A stretch of 64,000 nucleotides of DNA from NCBI GenBank assembly GCA_020341815.1, contig CP070837.1:1300575-1364574 (forward strand), given 5' to 3'. This document shows positions 9,482 to 46,133 of the stretch, one piece after another. The position numbers were made by a program, and so were the translations under genes. This stretch comes from Candidatus Omnitrophota bacterium (GTDB lineage: Bacteria; Omnitrophota; Gorgyraeia; JAFGHF01). Positions within the stretch are counted from its first letter, which is position 1; the number at the start of each line of letters is the position of its first letter. The notes beneath the pieces were generated by a model that made no database searches, was not told the DNA's origin, and saw only the letters and a program-made list of their open reading frames with translations.

Positions 9482-9978
9482 GAAAGATAATAATTTATTT
9501 TTTGATTTCTGCAGCTTCTCTTGTCTTGCCGGCGAAAGAGACAGGGGCCGAAGAAGATAAGTACGCGCAGGTTATGCGCGAGATGGCTAAAATCCATTAT
9601 ACTCGCGCAAGGAGTTATTATCGTAATGCAGAATACATAAAGGCAAAGATAGAATTAAGAGAGGTTTTAAGACTCGCCCCCGGCCATCAGGGTGCCCTAT
9701 GGTATCTCGATTGCGTAGAAAGAGCCTTGGATAGTCAGAAAGAGGCCTGCGGAAGCCGCCAGGCGAAATTAGCGAAATTAGAAAGAGAAGACAGGCTCAG
9801 TGAGGTGCAGGTGGCATTAAGCGCAGCCCAAGAGATAGAAGTGGATGAGCGCGACGCCGAAAGGGACGAGATAATAAACGAACTTTACAGGAAAGGCAAG
9901 GACTATTTTTCCCGCGGCCTTTACGCGAAAGCCATTGCCTGTTTTGAAAAGGTAATAAAATTAGCAGGAAAATATTGA
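9478..9978 (+). CDS. Secreted TPR-like protein.
   Basis: Signal peptide plus TPR-like helices. The start overlaps the upstream stop (ATGA), suggesting translational coupling. Confidence 0.35.
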   Translation: MRKIIIYFLISAASLVLPAKETGAEEDKYAQVMREMAKIHYTRARSYYRNAEYIKAKIELREVLRLAPGHQGALWYLDCVERALDSQKEACGSRQAKLAKLEREDRLSEVQVALSAAQEIEVDERDAERDEIINELYRKGKDYFSRGLYAKAIACFEKVIKLAGKY

Positions 9979-9980
9979 GA

Positions 9981-10095
9981 TGAACCCCGCTCTTCCAAAA
10001 CATCACGCCTTGCATAAAAGATATGGGTGAAGGCGGTAGGAGGAAGGATGGGGATAAGGGTTTGGCATTACAAAGAAAGGAAGGGCGGGGTGAAG
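9981..10095 (+). repeat. MITE/REP-like inverted-repeat element, copy A (TIRs TGAACCCCGCTCTTCC ... GGAAGGGCGGGGTGAAG).
   Basis: It starts 2 nt after the upstream stop codon. Its interior is ~90% identical to copy B. The 3' terminus carries the GTG (10090) used as the bioY start. Confidence 0.7.
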
Positions 10096-12267: not shown

Positions 12268-12270
12268 TTA

Positions 12271-12385
12271 TGAACCCCGCCCTTCCAAAACATCATACTT
12301 TGCATAATAGATATGGGCGAAGGTGGCAGGAGGAAGGATGGGGATAAGGGTTTGGCATTGCGAAGAAGGGAAGGGCGGGGTGAAG
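12271..12385 (+). repeat. MITE/REP-like element, copy B.
   Basis: It begins 3 nt after the bamD stop. The TIRs are TGAACCCCGCCCTTCC / GGAAGGGCGGGGTGAAG. The GTG at 12380 is the lptE start. Confidence 0.7.
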
Positions 12386-14118: not shown

Positions 14119-15759
14119 TTGTCAAGTATGGACGAAAATAAATCCCTGATAAAATCCACACGGGCAATCAGCGAGGCGACCTTTGCCAGCCGCATCCTGG
14201 GCTTTATCCGCGATGTTATCATCGCCCGGCTTTTTGGCACAGGCGTGCGCGCCCAGGCCTTTGTGGTGGCCTTTAGGATTCCTAACCTCTTGCGCAGCCT
14301 GGTGGGTGAAGGCGCCACAAATAGCGCCGTAGTGCCTGTCCTGGCCCGCCTGAATGAGCGGGGTAAAAGAGAGGAATTCTGGCAGGTGGCCAACTGCCTG
14401 TTGAATATCTTGATAGTAGTGCTGGCGGTCTTAACCTTACTGGGTGAGCTGCTTGCCCCGATTATCGTGCGCGCCATTGCCCCCGGCTTTATGAAGGACC
14501 CGCAGAAGCTATACCTGACTATACGGCTGACCAGATTTCTATTTCCTTATATTCTTCTGGTGGGCCTCTCCGCCTATGCGATGGCGGTATTGAACTCTCT
14601 TAAAAGCTTTGCCCTGCCAGCGCTTGCCCCCAGCATGCTTAATATCGCCCTGATTACCAGCGCCTTGATTTTCTGCCCGCGCTTAAAGGAGCCGGTTGAT
14701 GCCTTAGGCATAGGGGTGTTAAGCGGAGGGGTTCTGCAGTTAGCGGTCCAGGTGCCCCTGCTTCTCAAAAAGGGCCTGCTTAAAAAAAGAAGCTTTAGTT
14801 TTTTTCACCCCGCCCTTCTAAATACCACGCCTTACATAGGAGATGTGGGCGAAGGCAATAAAAAGAAGGGCGGGGTTCACCCCCGGGTAAAGGAGATGGG
14901 CAGGCTCTTTCTGCCGCGCACCTTAGGCATTGCAATATACCAGATTAATCTTTTTGTGGATACTATCTTTGCCTCTTTAACCTTTATAGTGGGTGAGGGC
15001 GCCCCGGCGGCCTTTCAGTATGCCAATCGCCTGGTGCAATTTCCCCTGGCCTTATTCGGCATAGCCTTAGCCCAGGCGGCACTGCCTGCTATGTCGGGCC
15101 TGGCCGCGCGCAAGGACTTTGCCCAGATGAGAAGGACGCTTTCCTTTTCTCTGCGCAGTGTTTTTACGATGATGCTGCCGGCCACGGTGGGGCTTATGGT
15201 GTTGGCACGCCCCCTGGTTAAGGTGATATTCGAGCGGGGCACCTTTAGCAGCTATTCTACGAACATCACCTCTTTTGTGCTTTTATTTTATTGTCTGGGG
15301 CTTACCGGCTATGCCGGCATAAAGGTGCTGGCCAGCTATTTCTACTCCCTGAAAGACACCTTTACCCCCAGTAAGGCAGCAGCCATTGCCCTGTTAATCA
15401 ATGTTATCTTAAACTTCCTTTTGATGCGGCCCTTAAAAATGGGGGGCCTGGCTTTGGCTACGGCAATCTCGGTTACAATTAATTTTGGCTGGCTTCTATT
15501 TGCCATGCGCAAGAGAATAGGAAAAATAGAGGGGCTTTTTGCTGCGCTGGGCAGGATTGTCTTGGCCGCCTCTATTATGGGGGCGGCTTTGTGGTTTGGC
15601 CTCTATCGCAGCGGGTTCCTCTGGGGCAGCGGGCTTATGCTTGCCTTTAAATTGTGCGCCTCTATTGCGCTGGGCGTATTGGTTTATTCGGGAGCCCTGA
15701 AGTTGCTTTCGCCTAGTGAGGCCGGGATATTTATCAGATGGATATTAAGGAGAAAATAA
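14119..15759 (+). CDS. murJ: Lipid II flippase MurJ, with a ~79-bp repeat element inserted in-frame.
   Basis: MurJ/MviN motifs ('RIPNLLRSLVGEGA', 'FLPRTLGIAIYQINLFVDTIFAS'). An extra ~25 aa ('SFSFFHPALLNTTPYIGDVGEGNKKKGGVHP') is encoded by the repeat copy at 14805-14883. Confidence 0.8.
   Translation: MSSMDENKSLIKSTRAISEATFASRILGFIRDVIIARLFGTGVRAQAFVVAFRIPNLLRSLVGEGATNSAVVPVLARLNERGKREEFWQVANCLLNILIVVLAVLTLLGELLAPIIVRAIAPGFMKDPQKLYLTIRLTRFLFPYILLVGLSAYAMAVLNSLKSFALPALAPSMLNIALITSALIFCPRLKEPVDALGIGVLSGGVLQLAVQVPLLLKKGLLKKRSFSFFHPALLNTTPYIGDVGEGNKKKGGVHPRVKEMGRLFLPRTLGIAIYQINLFVDTIFASLTFIVGEGAPAAFQYANRLVQFPLALFGIALAQAALPAMSGLAARKDFAQMRRTLSFSLRSVFTMMLPATVGLMVLARPLVKVIFERGTFSSYSTNITSFVLLFYCLGLTGYAGIKVLASYFYSLKDTFTPSKAAAIALLINVILNFLLMRPLKMGGLALATAISVTINFGWLLFAMRKRIGKIEGLFAALGRIVLAASIMGAALWFGLYRSGFLWGSGLMLAFKLCASIALGVLVYSGALKLLSPSEAGIFIRWILRRK
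14805..14883 (+). repeat. MITE/REP-like element, copy D (short variant), in-frame within murJ.
   Basis: The TIRs are TCACCCCGCCCTTC ... GAAGGGCGGGGTTCACCCC. The interior is homologous to copies A/B but with a ~45-bp deletion. Confidence 0.6.
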
Positions 15760-15871
15760 ACCCCGCCCTTCCTAAAAAACGTAAGTTAGGTATCAAAAAA
15801 AGAATTAGAGGACTTTACCTTTGCCAAAGAATATATGTAGACTAAGCAGAAAAATGAAGGGCGGGGTGAAG
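15757..15871 (+). repeat. MITE/REP-like element, copy C (divergent interior).
   Basis: It starts at the murJ stop (TAAACCCCGCCCTTCC) and ends GAAGGGCGGGGTGAAG. The uvrC ATG 15854 and GTG 15866 lie within it. Confidence 0.65.
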
Positions 15872-42980: not shown

Positions 42981-44065
42981 GGTGCGCGGCGCATCAGCAT
43001 TATGGCGACGGTGGAGAAGAGGAAATTGGCAAACCACGCCGATATAATCGGCGGCAGAGTTCCGCCTTTACCTAAAGCAAGGCTTAGGGCCTCTACCGTG
43101 TAATAGAAGAAGGCAATGACTACCGAAAGCCCGATACTGGCTACTTTTCCGGTGCCTTGCGTAGAAAGGGCAAAAGGGATACCCAAGAATATAATTATCA
43201 AACTGACAAAGGGAAAAGAAATCTTATAATGCAAATCCACCAGCAGCTTCTGCACAATCTTGGCTCCGCTTCCCGAGAGCCTCCTGATATATTCTCTTAA
43301 TTTCTGGTAATTCATAAACTCAGCCGAGGCCTCCCGCCTTAGGAAGTCCTTGGGCTTTTCTTCGATACCGATGAGCATCTTCTTGAAAAAGGCCGGCTCG
43401 GCATTTTCCTCTTCCTTATCGTTAAAATTGTAAACAACGCAGTCATTGAATGCCCACTTATTTCCCTGCCATTGTGCGCTTTTGGCCTGAATCTTGGCGA
43501 TAACCCGTTCCTCATTATCCTGCTCCAGGATAGTTATTTCTTCAAGGAGGTTGCTCTTGGTGTAGAATTTGCGCACATGAATGAGGCGGTTGTGCGCCCC
43601 GTAAAGAGCGATATTTTCCACTATTCTCTCTTGGAGCTGTGCCTTTTCTTTATCAAGATGTTCTTCTTTTACGGTGGCCGAAACAAGGTTTGCCTGAGGA
43701 ACGATTTTATCGTTAATCACCAGCGTAGCCATGCTGATAACTATCCCCAGGAAGAAAAAAGGCAGCACCATTCTCCAGATGCTTAAGCCCGTTGCTTTAA
43801 GGGCGATTATTTCATTGTATTTACTGAGATTTCCCAGTATATAGAGGGTGGAAAGAAGTGCTGCGATAGGCGCGGTGCGCACAAAGATTATCGGCAGAAA
43901 GGCCCCGTAATACTGAAGAAGCACTGACCATTCCACATGGTGTTTAAGGATATCCTCCAGGCGGCCGCAGAGGTCAATAACTACATAGAGGCTAATAAAC
44001 ACCGTCAGGCAGTAGAAAAAGGGCACCAGGAATTCTCTGACTATATAGCGGTCGATTATTTTCAC
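42974..44065 (-). CDS. lptG: LPS export ABC permease LptG/LptF family (YjgP/YjgQ).
   Basis: 'KIIDRYIVREF' N-terminus with six TM helices. The GTG start at 44063-65 lies inside repeat copy E. Confidence 0.7.
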   Translation of the reverse strand: MKIIDRYIVREFLVPFFYCLTVFISLYVVIDLCGRLEDILKHHVEWSVLLQYYGAFLPIIFVRTAPIAALLSTLYILGNLSKYNEIIALKATGLSIWRMVLPFFFLGIVISMATLVINDKIVPQANLVSATVKEEHLDKEKAQLQERIVENIALYGAHNRLIHVRKFYTKSNLLEEITILEQDNEERVIAKIQAKSAQWQGNKWAFNDCVVYNFNDKEEENAEPAFFKKMLIGIEEKPKDFLRREASAEFMNYQKLREYIRRLSGSGAKIVQKLLVDLHYKISFPFVSLIIIFLGIPFALSTQGTGKVASIGLSVVIAFFYYTVEALSLALGKGGTLPPIISAWFANFLFSTVAIMLMRRAPK

Positions 44066-44196
44066 CCCGCCCTTCCTTTCATCTCATCGTAATCTTAGGT
44101 CCAATTTTAACTTTGCTAGACTGTCTCTGCATTGCTTTATAGCTTTTACCCTTGCCCTTAATTGTAAGTATGCGGTTTTAGGAAGAGCGGGGTTCA
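44062..44196 (-). repeat. MITE/REP-like element, copy E (between lptF stop and lptG start).
   Basis: The TIRs are TCACCCCGCCCTTCC ... GGAAGAGCGGGGTTCA with a unique interior. The GTG-bearing terminus faces lptG. Confidence 0.6.
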
Positions 44197-44201
44197 TCGT
44201 T

Positions 44202-45290
44202 TTATCTCTTATTGGTATGGAAAATCAGAATAAGGCCTGCTGCGGTAAGAGCAATATTGGCCAGCCACATACTCAAACCCGGATAGACTAATCCCCTGAC
44301 GGAAAGGACCTCTCCCGTCAGAAAGAGTACATAATAGGCAACGAATACCCCGATACTTAAGCCGATACCGACGAACTTCTCCCGCCTTCTGGTGCAGATT
44401 GCCAGGGGCAGCCCCAGGATAACAAAGGCAAAGGTTGAAAAGGAAAAGGAAAGCTTTTTGTTTATCTCGGTAACGATAGGGGTAACCTCGATGTTCTCTT
44501 TTTGCAGCTCGTGCATCTTCTGGCGCAGCTCGCGCACGCTCATATCCTTTAATTTTTTCTGCATATTTTCCGTATCGTCGGAGATATCCAGGGTCAGATA
44601 ATAGGTCTTGAAATTGAGCTTGTAAAAGACGCCGGGGTCTTTGGGGTTAGGTTCGTCGCTTGAGCCGTTTATTAATTTCAGTTTTATGATATCTTTTTCC
44701 GGAAGCGGCAGGAACTCCCCCTCGTTGGCAATAATGGTGCGCGTGGCTTTTCCCTCCTGGGGCTGATAAATTCTTATATTACTGAGCTTGTTCTGGTGAA
44801 TTCCGTAAATGAAGATAATGTAATTCTGGAAGCTGCGGATAAAGGTGCCGGCCTCAAGAAATGCTGCGGGAGTCTTCATGCCGATCTGCTTGACGATTTT
44901 TCGTGATGCGAATAAGGCCCGGGGCTTCAGTTTATCGTTAATGGGGATAGAGGCAAGTGAAGCCACCAGGCCCACTATGATTATGGGAAAGCATAACCTG
45001 TAGAGATTAATTCCGCTGGCCCTGATAGCGACAATCTCATTATCGGCGGAAAGCCTGCCGATAGTCAGGAGTGTGGCGCTGAGGATGGAAAGGGGCAGCG
45101 CATAAGTTAAGATATTGGGGATAAGCAGAAAGATTAATTTGACCACCAGCCCCAGGCTCACCCCTTTATTGACTACCAGATTAAAGAGGTTTACCAGACT
45201 GCCGATAAGCATTATAAAGATAAGAATAGCCAGCGACAGGATAAACGGCCAGAATAATTCTTTTAATAAATATGTTCTCAGGATTTTCAC
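44202..45290 (-). CDS. lptF: LPS export ABC permease LptF/LptG family.
   Basis: The start is proposed at GTG 45288-90 ('VKILRTYLLKE') inside repeat copy F. The ORF-track extension to 45332 would translate repeat sequence. Confidence 0.65.
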   Translation of the reverse strand: MKILRTYLLKELFWPFILSLAILIFIMLIGSLVNLFNLVVNKGVSLGLVVKLIFLLIPNILTYALPLSILSATLLTIGRLSADNEIVAIRASGINLYRLCFPIIIVGLVASLASIPINDKLKPRALFASRKIVKQIGMKTPAAFLEAGTFIRSFQNYIIFIYGIHQNKLSNIRIYQPQEGKATRTIIANEGEFLPLPEKDIIKLKLINGSSDEPNPKDPGVFYKLNFKTYYLTLDISDDTENMQKKLKDMSVRELRQKMHELQKENIEVTPIVTEINKKLSFSFSTFAFVILGLPLAICTRRREKFVGIGLSIGVFVAYYVLFLTGEVLSVRGLVYPGLSMWLANIALTAAGLILIFHTNKR

Positions 45291-45363
45291 CCCGCTCTTC
45301 CTTTCTTCCCAATACCACTTGCCTATCCCCAATCCTTCCGATGTTTAGGAAGGGCGGGGTTCA
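45287..45363 (-). repeat. MITE/REP-like element, copy F (between comF stop and lptF start).
   Basis: The TIRs are TCACCCCGCTCTTCC ... GGAAGGGCGGGGTTCA. Confidence 0.6.
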
Positions 45364-45368
45364 TTTTT

Positions 45369-46133
45369 TTATGCTTTGCGCGCTAAAGTAAATACCTCAA
45401 TTCTATTTGCCCCTGCTTTATGCAGTGCTTTTGCGCACTCATTTACCGTGGCGCCTGTTGTCAGGACGTCATCCACCAGTAAGACGTTTTTATTTTTAGG
45501 GACATTTTTATTTTTGACCTTAAAGGCGCCCTTAATGTTCTTAAGCCTTTCTGTGCGCGAGAGGTTAATCTGAGGCTGGGTAGCTTTAATTTTAATGAGC
45601 GTTTTATTATGCGCTTGTTTCGAGAAGGCCTTAGCTAAAGATTCGCTCAAGATGCCTGCCTGATTAAACTGCCTCCGGCGCTCTTTTGCGCTGTAAAGAG
45701 GCACAGGCAGAATCAAATCCACTTTTCTCATATCCAAAAACCTGCCCGCAAAATCGATCATCAATTCCGCCAGCGGCCCGCTTAAAGATAATTTACTGTT
45801 GTATTTAAATAGATGGATGCATTCTTTAATTACGCCCTCGTATATGCACGCAGAGTGCGCTTTCTTAAAGAAATACCCGGAGGCTTGACAATCCTTACAG
45901 ATAAATGCGTGATTTTGGCTTTTTGCGGGCCTGCCCGCCTTCATGCTGGCGGGCAGGTGCCTGGCGCATATGCGGCAAAAAGGCGGCAGATTGAACTTAA
46001 TCTTGTTCCAGCATATTTCACATAAGGGCTTATCGCTTAAGGGGTTTAGCCTCGCTCTGCATAGCAGGCAGGATAAAGGATAAATCAGATTTATAAAACT
46101 CCTTATCCAGGGCTTAAACACCGTGCTTGTCAA
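45369..46133 (-). CDS. comF: ComF family protein (phosphoribosyltransferase domain).
   Basis: N-terminal Cys-rich zinc finger and a C-terminal PRT motif 'LLVDDVLTTGATV'. Confidence 0.65.
   Translation of the reverse strand: MTSTVFKPWIRSFINLIYPLSCLLCRARLNPLSDKPLCEICWNKIKFNLPPFCRICARHLPASMKAGRPAKSQNHAFICKDCQASGYFFKKAHSACIYEGVIKECIHLFKYNSKLSLSGPLAELMIDFAGRFLDMRKVDLILPVPLYSAKERRRQFNQAGILSESLAKAFSKQAHNKTLIKIKATQPQINLSRTERLKNIKGAFKVKNKNVPKNKNVLLVDDVLTTGATVNECAKALHKAGANRIEVFTLARKA

Follow-up and report, generated by a model that had tools for sequence, protein, structure and literature searches.

The DNA analyzed here is a window of 64,000 nt from a Candidatus Omnitrophota bacterium (contig CP070837.1, positions 1,300,575 to 1,364,574), and it holds six copies, A to F, of a short inverted-repeat element. 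We found that the element belongs to a mobile family of MITEs (miniature inverted-repeat transposable elements) that duplicate four target bases, TGAR, and that reside almost exclusively on start codons. At the right-hand end of a typical copy, the element and the duplicated target together rebuild a Shine-Dalgarno (SD)-like sequence and a GTG for the downstream gene. Our best explanation, to which we give a probability of roughly 75%, is a TGAR-duplicating MITE that persists at starts because it rebuilds them, and that would in addition couple translation of the downstream gene to that of upstream sequence.

In this explanation, survival would be nearly confined to copies whose target TGAR belongs to a start codon, (A/G)TGAR, and about half of these targets would be ATGA stop/start overlaps. 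In the left target-site duplication (TSD), the stop of the upstream gene, the old start codon or both would be preserved. On the right, GTG-AAR would arise at the original codon position from the final G of the element and the TSD, and an SD-like sequence 4-8 nt upstream would be provided by the right arm together with the preceding A-rich bases (AAAGGAAGGG). With the stop or old start kept on the left and a start rebuilt on the right, both genes would survive the insertion. Sites of two other kinds would also be tolerated, namely positions within a gene where the frame is kept (copy D, murJ) and the first codons of a gene, which the element replaces (copy C, uvrC). In the mRNA, the arms would pair into a GC-rich stem of 12-13 bp, so that both the GU of the GUG and the SD-like sequence would be masked. 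Ribosomes terminating upstream would open this stem, or, more generally, translation from the relic start would do so by way of a short open reading frame (ORF) beginning MNPALP... The end of that mini-ORF on a UGA overlapping the new GUG would recreate a -4 overlap.

The copies and the features that belong to them are located as follows.

9981..10094, plus strand: copy A, at the bioY start; TSDs TGAA at 9981-9984 and 10091-10094, element 9985-10090; upstream stop TGA 9976-9978, relic ATG 9980-9982, junction GTG 10090-10092.
10048..10050, plus strand: ATG within copy A and in frame; as an alternative start it would extend BioY by MGIRVWHYKERKGG.
12271..12384, plus strand: copy B, at the lptE start; TSDs 12271-12274 and 12381-12384, element 12275-12380; relic ATG 12270-12272, junction GTG 12380-12382, alternative in-frame ATG 12338-12340.
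14128..15759, plus strand: murJ, host of copy D; its stop TAA (15757-15759) lies within the left TSD of copy C.
14804..14879, plus strand: copy D, inside murJ; TSD TTCA at 14804-14807 and 14876-14879, element 14808-14875.
15738..15740, plus strand: ancestral uvrC start (MDIKEKI...), which now opens a 34-codon ORF ending inside copy C.
15757..15870, plus strand: copy C, at the murJ stop and uvrC 5′ end; TSDs TAAA 15757-15760 and TGAA 15867-15870, element 15761-15866; junction GTG 15866-15868, ATG 15854-15856 arisen in the right arm.
44061..44196, minus strand: copy E, at the lptG start; TSDs 44061-44064 and 44193-44196, element 44065-44192; junction GTG 44063-44065, relic ATG 44195-44197, lptF stop 44202-44204.
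45286..45363, minus strand: copy F, at the lptF start; TSDs 45286-45289 and 45360-45363, element 45290-45359; junction GTG 45288-45290, relic ATG 45362-45364, upstream stop 45369-45371.

A search of the window with the 13-mer GGAAGGGCGGGGT, allowing up to two mismatches, gave 12 matches that form six inverted pairs. The chance expectation is 1.87 matches, 12 were reached by none of 100 shuffles of the window, and for the two-arm pattern the expectation is zero. All six copies reported in the first-pass annotation of this DNA were thereby located. Their inverted repeats had been given as ~16 bp, but the terminal inverted repeats proper are 12 bp (CCCCGCCCTTCC...GGAAGGGCGGGG); the TGAA that had been counted in is a direct repeat outside of the arms. 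Each arm carries 0-1 mismatch, except in copy D, where both arms are off at one complementary position. The elements are 68-128 bp long in the window and 50-145 bp elsewhere, and they contain short ORFs only and no transposase gene. Alignment of the six copies gave the same ~90% identity between A and B that had been noted before. Copy F is an A-like copy without the 5′ interior, and the interiors of C and E are divergent. Copy D, previously described as a deletion derivative, is indeed an A-like copy that lacks the 3′ interior; it is not intergenic but lies in frame inside the murJ ORF. About half of the family copies contain, typically 13-14 nt ahead of the true right arm, a degenerate second version of it (GGAAGnGnTGGGGTATAAAT), which may serve as another transposase site or as a decoy that pairs with the 5′ arm and frees the ribosome-binding site (RBS).

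The flanking 4-mers are TGAA...TGAA in A and B, TTCA...TTCA on the plus strand in D, E and F, and TAAA...TGAA in C. Since these four bases are repeated directly and not inverted, they are the signature of a TSD, TGAR. The base preceding the left TSD is A in copies A, B, E and F, so that the left flank reads ATGAA, a relic start codon. The new start is a chimera, because the first base of its GTG comes from the end of the element and the other two from the duplicated TGAR, with AAR following. The earlier proposal that the repeat supplies both RBS and GTG thus stands for the SD-like part, while the GTG is not carried whole by the element. The distance to the upstream gene had been described as 0-3 nt from stop codon to copy; we measured, up to the TGAA, 2 nt for A and 3 nt for B, but 5 nt for E and F, and copy C overlaps the stop.

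The same signature was found elsewhere. A metagenome scan with the 12-mer arms, blind to the flanks, returned 127 matches, 125 of them scorable (two are at contig edges). The flanks are TGAA/TTCA in 91, TGAG/CTCA in 13 and TCAA in one, and 20 have no exact duplication; TGAR duplications thus account for 104 of the 125. Several of the 20 are one-base near-misses, and the remainder are unrelated palindromes. Covariation of the fourth flank base between the two sides makes the duplication 4 bp long. Duplications of 3 bp (TGA) or 5 bp were considered and rejected on account of this covariation and of the base before the right TSD, which is always the G of the element. A copy with CTGA...CTGA in locus L098 indicates that the duplicated sequence is variable. 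There are also tandem arrays in which neighbors have one TGAA in common (GGGGTGAACCCC), and which indicate that the regenerated site is open to further insertion.

A scan of GTDB species genomes with 10-mer arms gave at least 117 loci, ~85% of which are chance matches or unrelated hairpins in GC-rich taxa. Among the matches listed, 17 copies (16 loci) have matching 4-bp flanks, and these are mostly labelled Omnitrophota. The same 10-mer arms occur in a different repeat of Verrucomicrobiota, Lentisphaerae and related taxa (L014, L018, L022, L056, L083, L087, L093), with the interior CGGGCACCCCTCC...GGAGGGG and flanks (a)ccca/tgggt, which looks like a separate palindromic family. Another repeat, GCGGGGAGAGGGTnGGGGTGAGGGG with flanks ccctcg/cgagg, in Bradyrhizobium and other alphaproteobacteria (L006, L020, L023, L037, L055, L072, L079, L085) is unrelated.

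Residence on start codons was scored for the 103 unique metagenome copies that have a TGAR duplication. Immediately before it, 85 copies have A and 18 have G, and no copy has C or T. An ORF of 60 residues or more, or one continuing past the contig end, starts at the junction GTG in 93 of the 103 copies, compared with 0 and 2 for the other two frames, and the downstream proteins form 92 distinct N-terminal clusters. The upstream co-directional stop is the TGA inside the left TSD in 47 copies (former ATGA overlaps), lies 7-31 nt away in 36 and is missing in 20. Ten downstream proteins were tested against Pfam (L36, MurG, the acetate kinase AckA, CoaD, L18, NrdR, Pth, Mdh, PurD and LptG), and all ten match from residue 1-6 onward, beginning at profile position 1-2. 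In 85 of 114 family copies, no start codon stands between the junction GTG and the nearest in-frame stop, a few codons upstream (typically 6), and translation could begin no earlier. In these copies the junction GTG is therefore the only way to a full protein. Both results agree with the earlier claim that the 3′ end of the repeat gives an SD-like sequence and a start. For comparison, the window contains 1044 TGAR sites, of which 159 are outside gene cores and at most 22 (14%) are at a plausible start, against a residence of ~90% observed for the family. The positional bias toward gene starts that the first-pass annotation had anticipated is present in these copies. At the level of sequence comparison, we regard residence on start codons and regeneration of the start as demonstrated. 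A rare off-start copy, with a TGAG duplication, lies at L195:150-269, 10 nt 5′ of an infA-like ATG (MAKEEPLQIVG...).

Residence of this kind could come from the transposase rather than from survival. Active targeting would mean that the transposase picks start-region DNA resembling its own right end (SD-like purines, a short spacer and RTGAR), with residence following from this preference. Some insertion sequence (IS) transposases do prefer targets that resemble their own ends. The excess of copies at starts over the ≤14% expected, the arising of tandem arrays at regenerated GTGAA sites, and independent hits on two sites, the lptE start and the murJ stop, each seen both in the window and in L098, a different lineage, would all fit. 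However, the reconstructed target logo shows R+TGAR plus the ordinary purine enrichment of an SD region and nothing more, and copy D and the L195 copy show that other TGAR sites are hit. Extant copies cannot separate targeting from selection. We consider active targeting unlikely.

Evidence of mobility comes from empty orthologous sites in related Omnitrophota contigs (L119, which is syntenic, and L120), a comparison that the first-pass annotation had named as informative. Such sites were found for lptE, bioY, the murJ loop and the murJ/uvrC junction. The lptE site in L119 reads gtaaaATGAAaaga (MKRINFIFLLL), and the window has ttATGAA[element B]TGAAgaga (VKRFNFIFLLL); empty and filled site match the duplication model to the base. 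The bioY ortholog in L119 begins MHAFELSR, at the same position as VKALELSR in the window. In a related contig, a run of GGTTACAT-like units (aggttacataaggttacgtgaggttacattatgttacataaggttac) lies at L241:1500-1560, just 5′ of lptE, where the window has copy B.

The product of the murJ ORF is 100% identical to a MurJ from a Candidatus Omnitrophota metagenome-assembled genome, encoded on a contig of 1,553,238 bp. MurJ has 543 residues in the window and 519 in its closest homologs (75% identity), and copy D accounts for the difference. Its 72 nt, inserted in frame, add 24 residues (HPALLNTTPYIGDVGEGNKKKGGV) to a MurJ loop. Without the insert, the sequence in orthologs is agt ttt cgt ttt att cat cct aaa gtg (SFRFIHPKV), and the window protein reads SFSFF[HPALL...KKKGGV]HPRV, with TTCA on each side and exactly 72 inserted bases. 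Other Omnitrophota MurJ proteins have unrelated inserts of ~22-25 residues in the same loop (alignment columns 227-296; L241:4036-4185; L242:1179-1350). At the DNA level these are different small palindromes, e.g., GTCCTAC...GTAGtAGGAC and GAAAATTGC...GCAATTTTC, and the loop seems to be a recurrent landing site of small repeats.

The uvrC orthologs in L119 and L120 start ATGgatattaaggagaaaaTAAAagcttttcc (MDIKEKIKAFPDSPGVY), with a 22-nt overlap with the end of murJ. Copy C occupies the stop codon of murJ, at a point 7 codons into the ancestral uvrC. Because the old ATG at 15738 now leads only into the 34-codon ORF that stops inside copy C, UvrC must restart from the end of the element. The junction can thus create a start de novo and not only restore one. 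An independent insertion of the family at the murJ stop, within the uvrC 5′ overlap, is present at 6697-6805 of L098 (Omnitrophota metagenome-assembled genome JAUWBJ010000056.1). It is shifted by one base, with the duplication CTGA, and a uvrC restart is possible there only from an element-internal ATG (MESEERIKKIGRAGLKKIPTSPGVY).

The TSDs, empty orthologous sites and tandem arrays bear out the earlier suggestion of a mobile MITE-like family, and we take mobility with a 4-bp TGAR duplication as demonstrated by these alignments. By its defining features (short length, inverted repeats, a fixed duplication, empty sites and many copies, six in 64 kb and ~92 distinct sites in public contigs), the family is a MITE; only a parent IS was not found in the fetched loci. 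The same evidence bears on the idea that the copies are regulatory hairpins evolved in place, or palindromes of the REP/REPIN or IS200/IS605 type moved by a tyrosine (HUH) transposase without a TSD. The predicted stability of the stem, a position at gene junctions that recalls REP/BIME elements, and a nearly fixed orientation to genes would be expected of such hairpins. They would not be expected to leave empty orthologous sites, to insert in frame inside murJ or to hit more than 90 different genes, and the 4-mers on the two sides vary together, as duplications do, with TGAG, CTGA and TCAA among the variants. We also rejected membership in the two named groups individually. Units of REP/REPIN are imperfect palindromes that have a conserved 5′ tetranucleotide and lack a TSD; here, single arms are not palindromic and the flanks are covarying duplications. 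IS200/IS605 derivatives have a separate subterminal hairpin at either end and insert strand-specifically 3′ of a fixed tetranucleotide, with no TSD; here, pairing is between the two ends and not within each of them, the flanks again covary, and the interior of copy D is reversed relative to the flanking tetranucleotide. An origin in place or by such a route is highly improbable.

The junction GTG had been described as in frame with the downstream gene in every copy. This holds for A, B, C, E and F, although A, B and C also have an in-frame ATG upstream of it, and copy D lies within murJ. In all start-site copies, the predicted start codon lies in the element or is formed by it. For copy E, the gene caller recorded LptG from the junction GTG, position 1 of the Pfam LptF_LptG profile aligns at residue 6, and an in-frame stop 7 codons 5′ of the GTG makes an earlier start impossible. 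UvrC was recorded from the ATG at 15854, which is in frame 4 codons 5′ of the junction GTG of copy C and was made by a T variant in the right arm. In copies A, B, C and F, the GUG is a candidate start.

For A and B, the real start may instead be the internal ATG (10048 and 12338, respectively). The element would then be an exposed cassette of RBS plus ATG, BioY and LptE would carry a 14-residue element-encoded extension, and the junction GTG would be an internal valine codon. In both copies the ATG is in frame 14 codons 5′ of the junction GTG, is preceded by AGGAGGAAGG and falls in the predicted hairpin loop rather than the stem, and copy F has a TTG at the equivalent position. On the other hand, the orthologs start exactly at the junction codon, and the n-region of the LptE lipoprotein signal peptide would grow to ~20 residues. 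Gene-caller records contained neither the junction-GTG nor the internal-ATG version of BioY, nor any of three LptE versions (starts 12380, 12338 and 12323), and the 85 of 114 family copies described above lack any upstream in-frame start. We see initiation at the internal ATG as a real possibility for these two genes, but not the probable one.

The orientation of the element relative to genes is nearly fixed. The interior is purine-rich on the sense strand of the gene in 122 of 124 copies, with means of 67% purines, 26% G and 10% C. By the orientation of its duplication, copy D is the one clear exception; it is purine-rich in the murJ sense, where its TSD reads TTCA. As copy D keeps the purine-rich sense despite a reversed TSD, orientation follows transcription and not the target, which argues for selection at the RNA or translation level over a strand-specific insertion mechanism. 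GC skew is positive in every 2-kb bin of the window, which places the whole window on one replichore with the plus strand leading. A replication-strand cause of the orientation was rejected, since E and F are on the minus strand under this uniformly positive skew, yet are still in gene sense. Speculatively, the reasons for the orientation may include fewer stops and the avoidance of C-rich Rho-loading sites and of SD-pairing pyrimidine tracts.

A stem of 12-13 bp (ACCCCGCCCUUCC/GGAAGGGCGGGGU) is predicted in all six copies, with Z-scores of -1.0 to -4.2. The SD-like GGAAGGG lies within it, as does the GU of the GUG, so that the pairing proposed in the first-pass annotation is predicted six times out of six. 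A masking stem with ribosome-mediated opening is the reading that we favor of this fold. Given the size of its footprint, a ribosome terminating at a stop inside the left TSD would reach into the 5′ arm. In copies A, B, E and F the upstream stop is 9-12 nt before the stem (12 nt in E and F), and a ribosome would barely reach. The relic start codon retains its old upstream region and opens the short ORF MNPALP... across the 5′ arm. In 42 of 114 copies (37%) this mini-ORF crosses the element from end to end and terminates in the right TSD, exactly on its TGA, which overlaps the new GTG (GTGA), with bridging peptides of the form MNPALPK...KKGRAG-stop. Of 114 elements, 64 have a length of 1 modulo 3, 30 of 2 and 20 of 0 (p = 8e−7), with size classes of 70, 73, 76, 79, 106, 109 and 124. 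The relic-start frame is open in 42 of the 64 elements with length 1 modulo 3 vs. 13 of the 50 others (Fisher p = 3e−5), and the difference persists in both size strata. The link between openness and length class fits selection for a ribosome relay. No sign of an outward promoter was found in family copies, where TATAAT-like boxes near the right end are no commoner than in the left interior, and a promoter consensus scan found none inside the window copies.

These patterns have to be weighed against a purely selfish MITE, i.e., one in which the transposase prefers RTGAR, purifying selection removes the insertions that do not restore a start, and there is no role in coupling. The stem would then be the transposase-binding inverted repeat, initiation at the GUG or at internal ATGs would be independent, and the mini-ORFs would be incidental. 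Several points speak for this, count against our preferred explanation, or do both. At the one scorable arm position, C.A mismatches (37) outnumber U.G wobbles (11), so that there is no compensatory pattern and no sign of selection for RNA pairing. In the five intergenic window copies the mini-ORFs have 16, 25, 34, 36 and 13 codons, all stop inside the element, and none bridges it. Antisense frames are open in 31-46 of 114 copies, which makes openness alone weak evidence, and the link between openness and length could also come from indels that frameshift an ancestrally open master copy. The exposed AGGAGG with in-frame ATG in A and B, and the ATG chosen by the gene caller in C, mean that the junction GTG may not be the start that is used. 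Family copies were collected by exact arm matches, so that conclusions on arm conservation are biased. Finally, ~1.5 Mb of fetched loci gave neither an autonomous parent nor a transposase with these ends. The search covered arm pairs 300-4000 bp apart with matching flanks, as well as unpaired arms, and it yielded only neighboring MITE copies and unrelated GC-rich palindromes, with no unpaired family ends in these loci.

A selfish element would not, however, be expected to show the skew in length modulo 3 and its size classes, the tie between an open frame and length 1 modulo 3, or sense orientation in all but two of 124 copies. A 12-13 bp GC stem over the sole available start, as in 85 of 114 copies, would also need an opener. 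We regard the purely selfish MITE as a contender whose chances are clearly below even. Since the window copies have no bridging mini-ORF, we infer translational coupling here rather than observe it, and the same is true of the domesticated cassette and the hairpin-enforced coupling that were suggested from the first reading of the window. A self-propagating coupling cassette, actively targeted to SD-plus-RTGAR starts and converting the old start, or an ATGA overlap, into a stem-melting mini-ORF (MNPALP...GRAG) that ends in a UGA/GUG relay, is an extension that we consider quite unlikely.

In Rfam, the window as a whole had no match at the gathering threshold, and copy A had none at E ≤ 1. The family shares with the Correia/NEMIS MITEs of Neisseria a short length, the lack of coding capacity, terminal inverted repeats, a fixed short TSD and multiple copies. 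Correia elements are processed by RNase III. Elements of the Correia type are co-transcribed with neighboring genes and can fold as long hairpins (reviewed in PMC10969869 and PMC3184786). They have a TA duplication, and carry promoters and integration host factor (IHF) sites (PMC3184786). In contrast, the Omnitrophota family has a TGAR duplication and ~90% of its copies on starts, and the junction itself is the start codon. In the literature that we searched, we found no MITE described as residing on start codons and rebuilding them from its terminal base and the duplication, and these properties appear to be undescribed for a MITE.

Repeats that carry start codons are nevertheless known, contrary to the first-pass annotation, which knew of no such family. 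Neisseria REP2 and Borrelia IR are located just 5′ of ORFs and carry an RBS and start codon (PMC3184786). REP2 differs from the Omnitrophota family in that it has no terminal inverted repeats and no TSD, and has a promoter and a complete ATG, whereas the start described here is chimeric and no promoter signal was found. The mycobacterial MIRUs are further repeats that carry an RBS and start codon. Those that Supply et al. reportedly described in 1997 are intra-operon repeats with small ORFs that overlap the flanking stop and start, and preserved translational coupling is said to have been proposed for them. The likeness lies in the mini-ORF MNPALP...KGRAG-stop, which overlaps the flanking stop/start in 42 of 114 Omnitrophota copies and in none of the five intergenic window copies. 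MIRUs, however, are tandem-repeat units without inverted repeats or a TSD, and in the Omnitrophota family bridging ORFs occur in a minority only.

Copy D in murJ behaves as an in-frame intragenic insertion, and in this it is like the Rickettsia palindromic elements (RPEs), mobile palindromic repeats that are tolerated in frame within genes (PMC10969869). RPEs are ~150 bp long and many of their insertions are intragenic, nearly half in R. conorii (PMC10969869). Membership in the RPEs was rejected, as there is no sequence similarity, only one of the six window copies is intragenic, and intragenic copies are rare exceptions in the family. For the predicted stem, the RNA-unfolding model of translational coupling is established (PMC12548453), with RBS-masking structures that are opened by upstream translation in rpmI-rplT, phage f1 genes VII/IX and MS2 coat-lysis (PMC12548453). 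Those systems evolved in place in single operons; in the Omnitrophota, a transposon would bring the masking stem to many genes.

The family links three oddities: the in-frame insertions of RPEs, the mini-ORFs of MIRUs and the start-carrying repeats of REP2. For annotation, many genes in these genomes start at a GTG hidden in a repeat, and gene callers disagree on them. Proteins can also gain element-encoded residues, as with the 24 residues of MurJ and possible N-terminal extensions of 14 residues. The window is ~91% coding by a crude ORF model, and the family shows how a transposon can persist in such a dense genome by landing on starts and stop/start overlaps and repairing them. If the coupling is real, the element would be a natural portable module for translational coupling, and the same cassette in front of ~90 genes would allow a clean test of RNA-unfolding vs. 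reinitiation models. On the reading of an actively targeted cassette, which we consider quite unlikely, dozens of genes per genome would have gained the same ribosome hand-over and masking hairpin, and a transposon would have installed a genome-wide layer of translational control in the reduced genomes of Omnitrophota.

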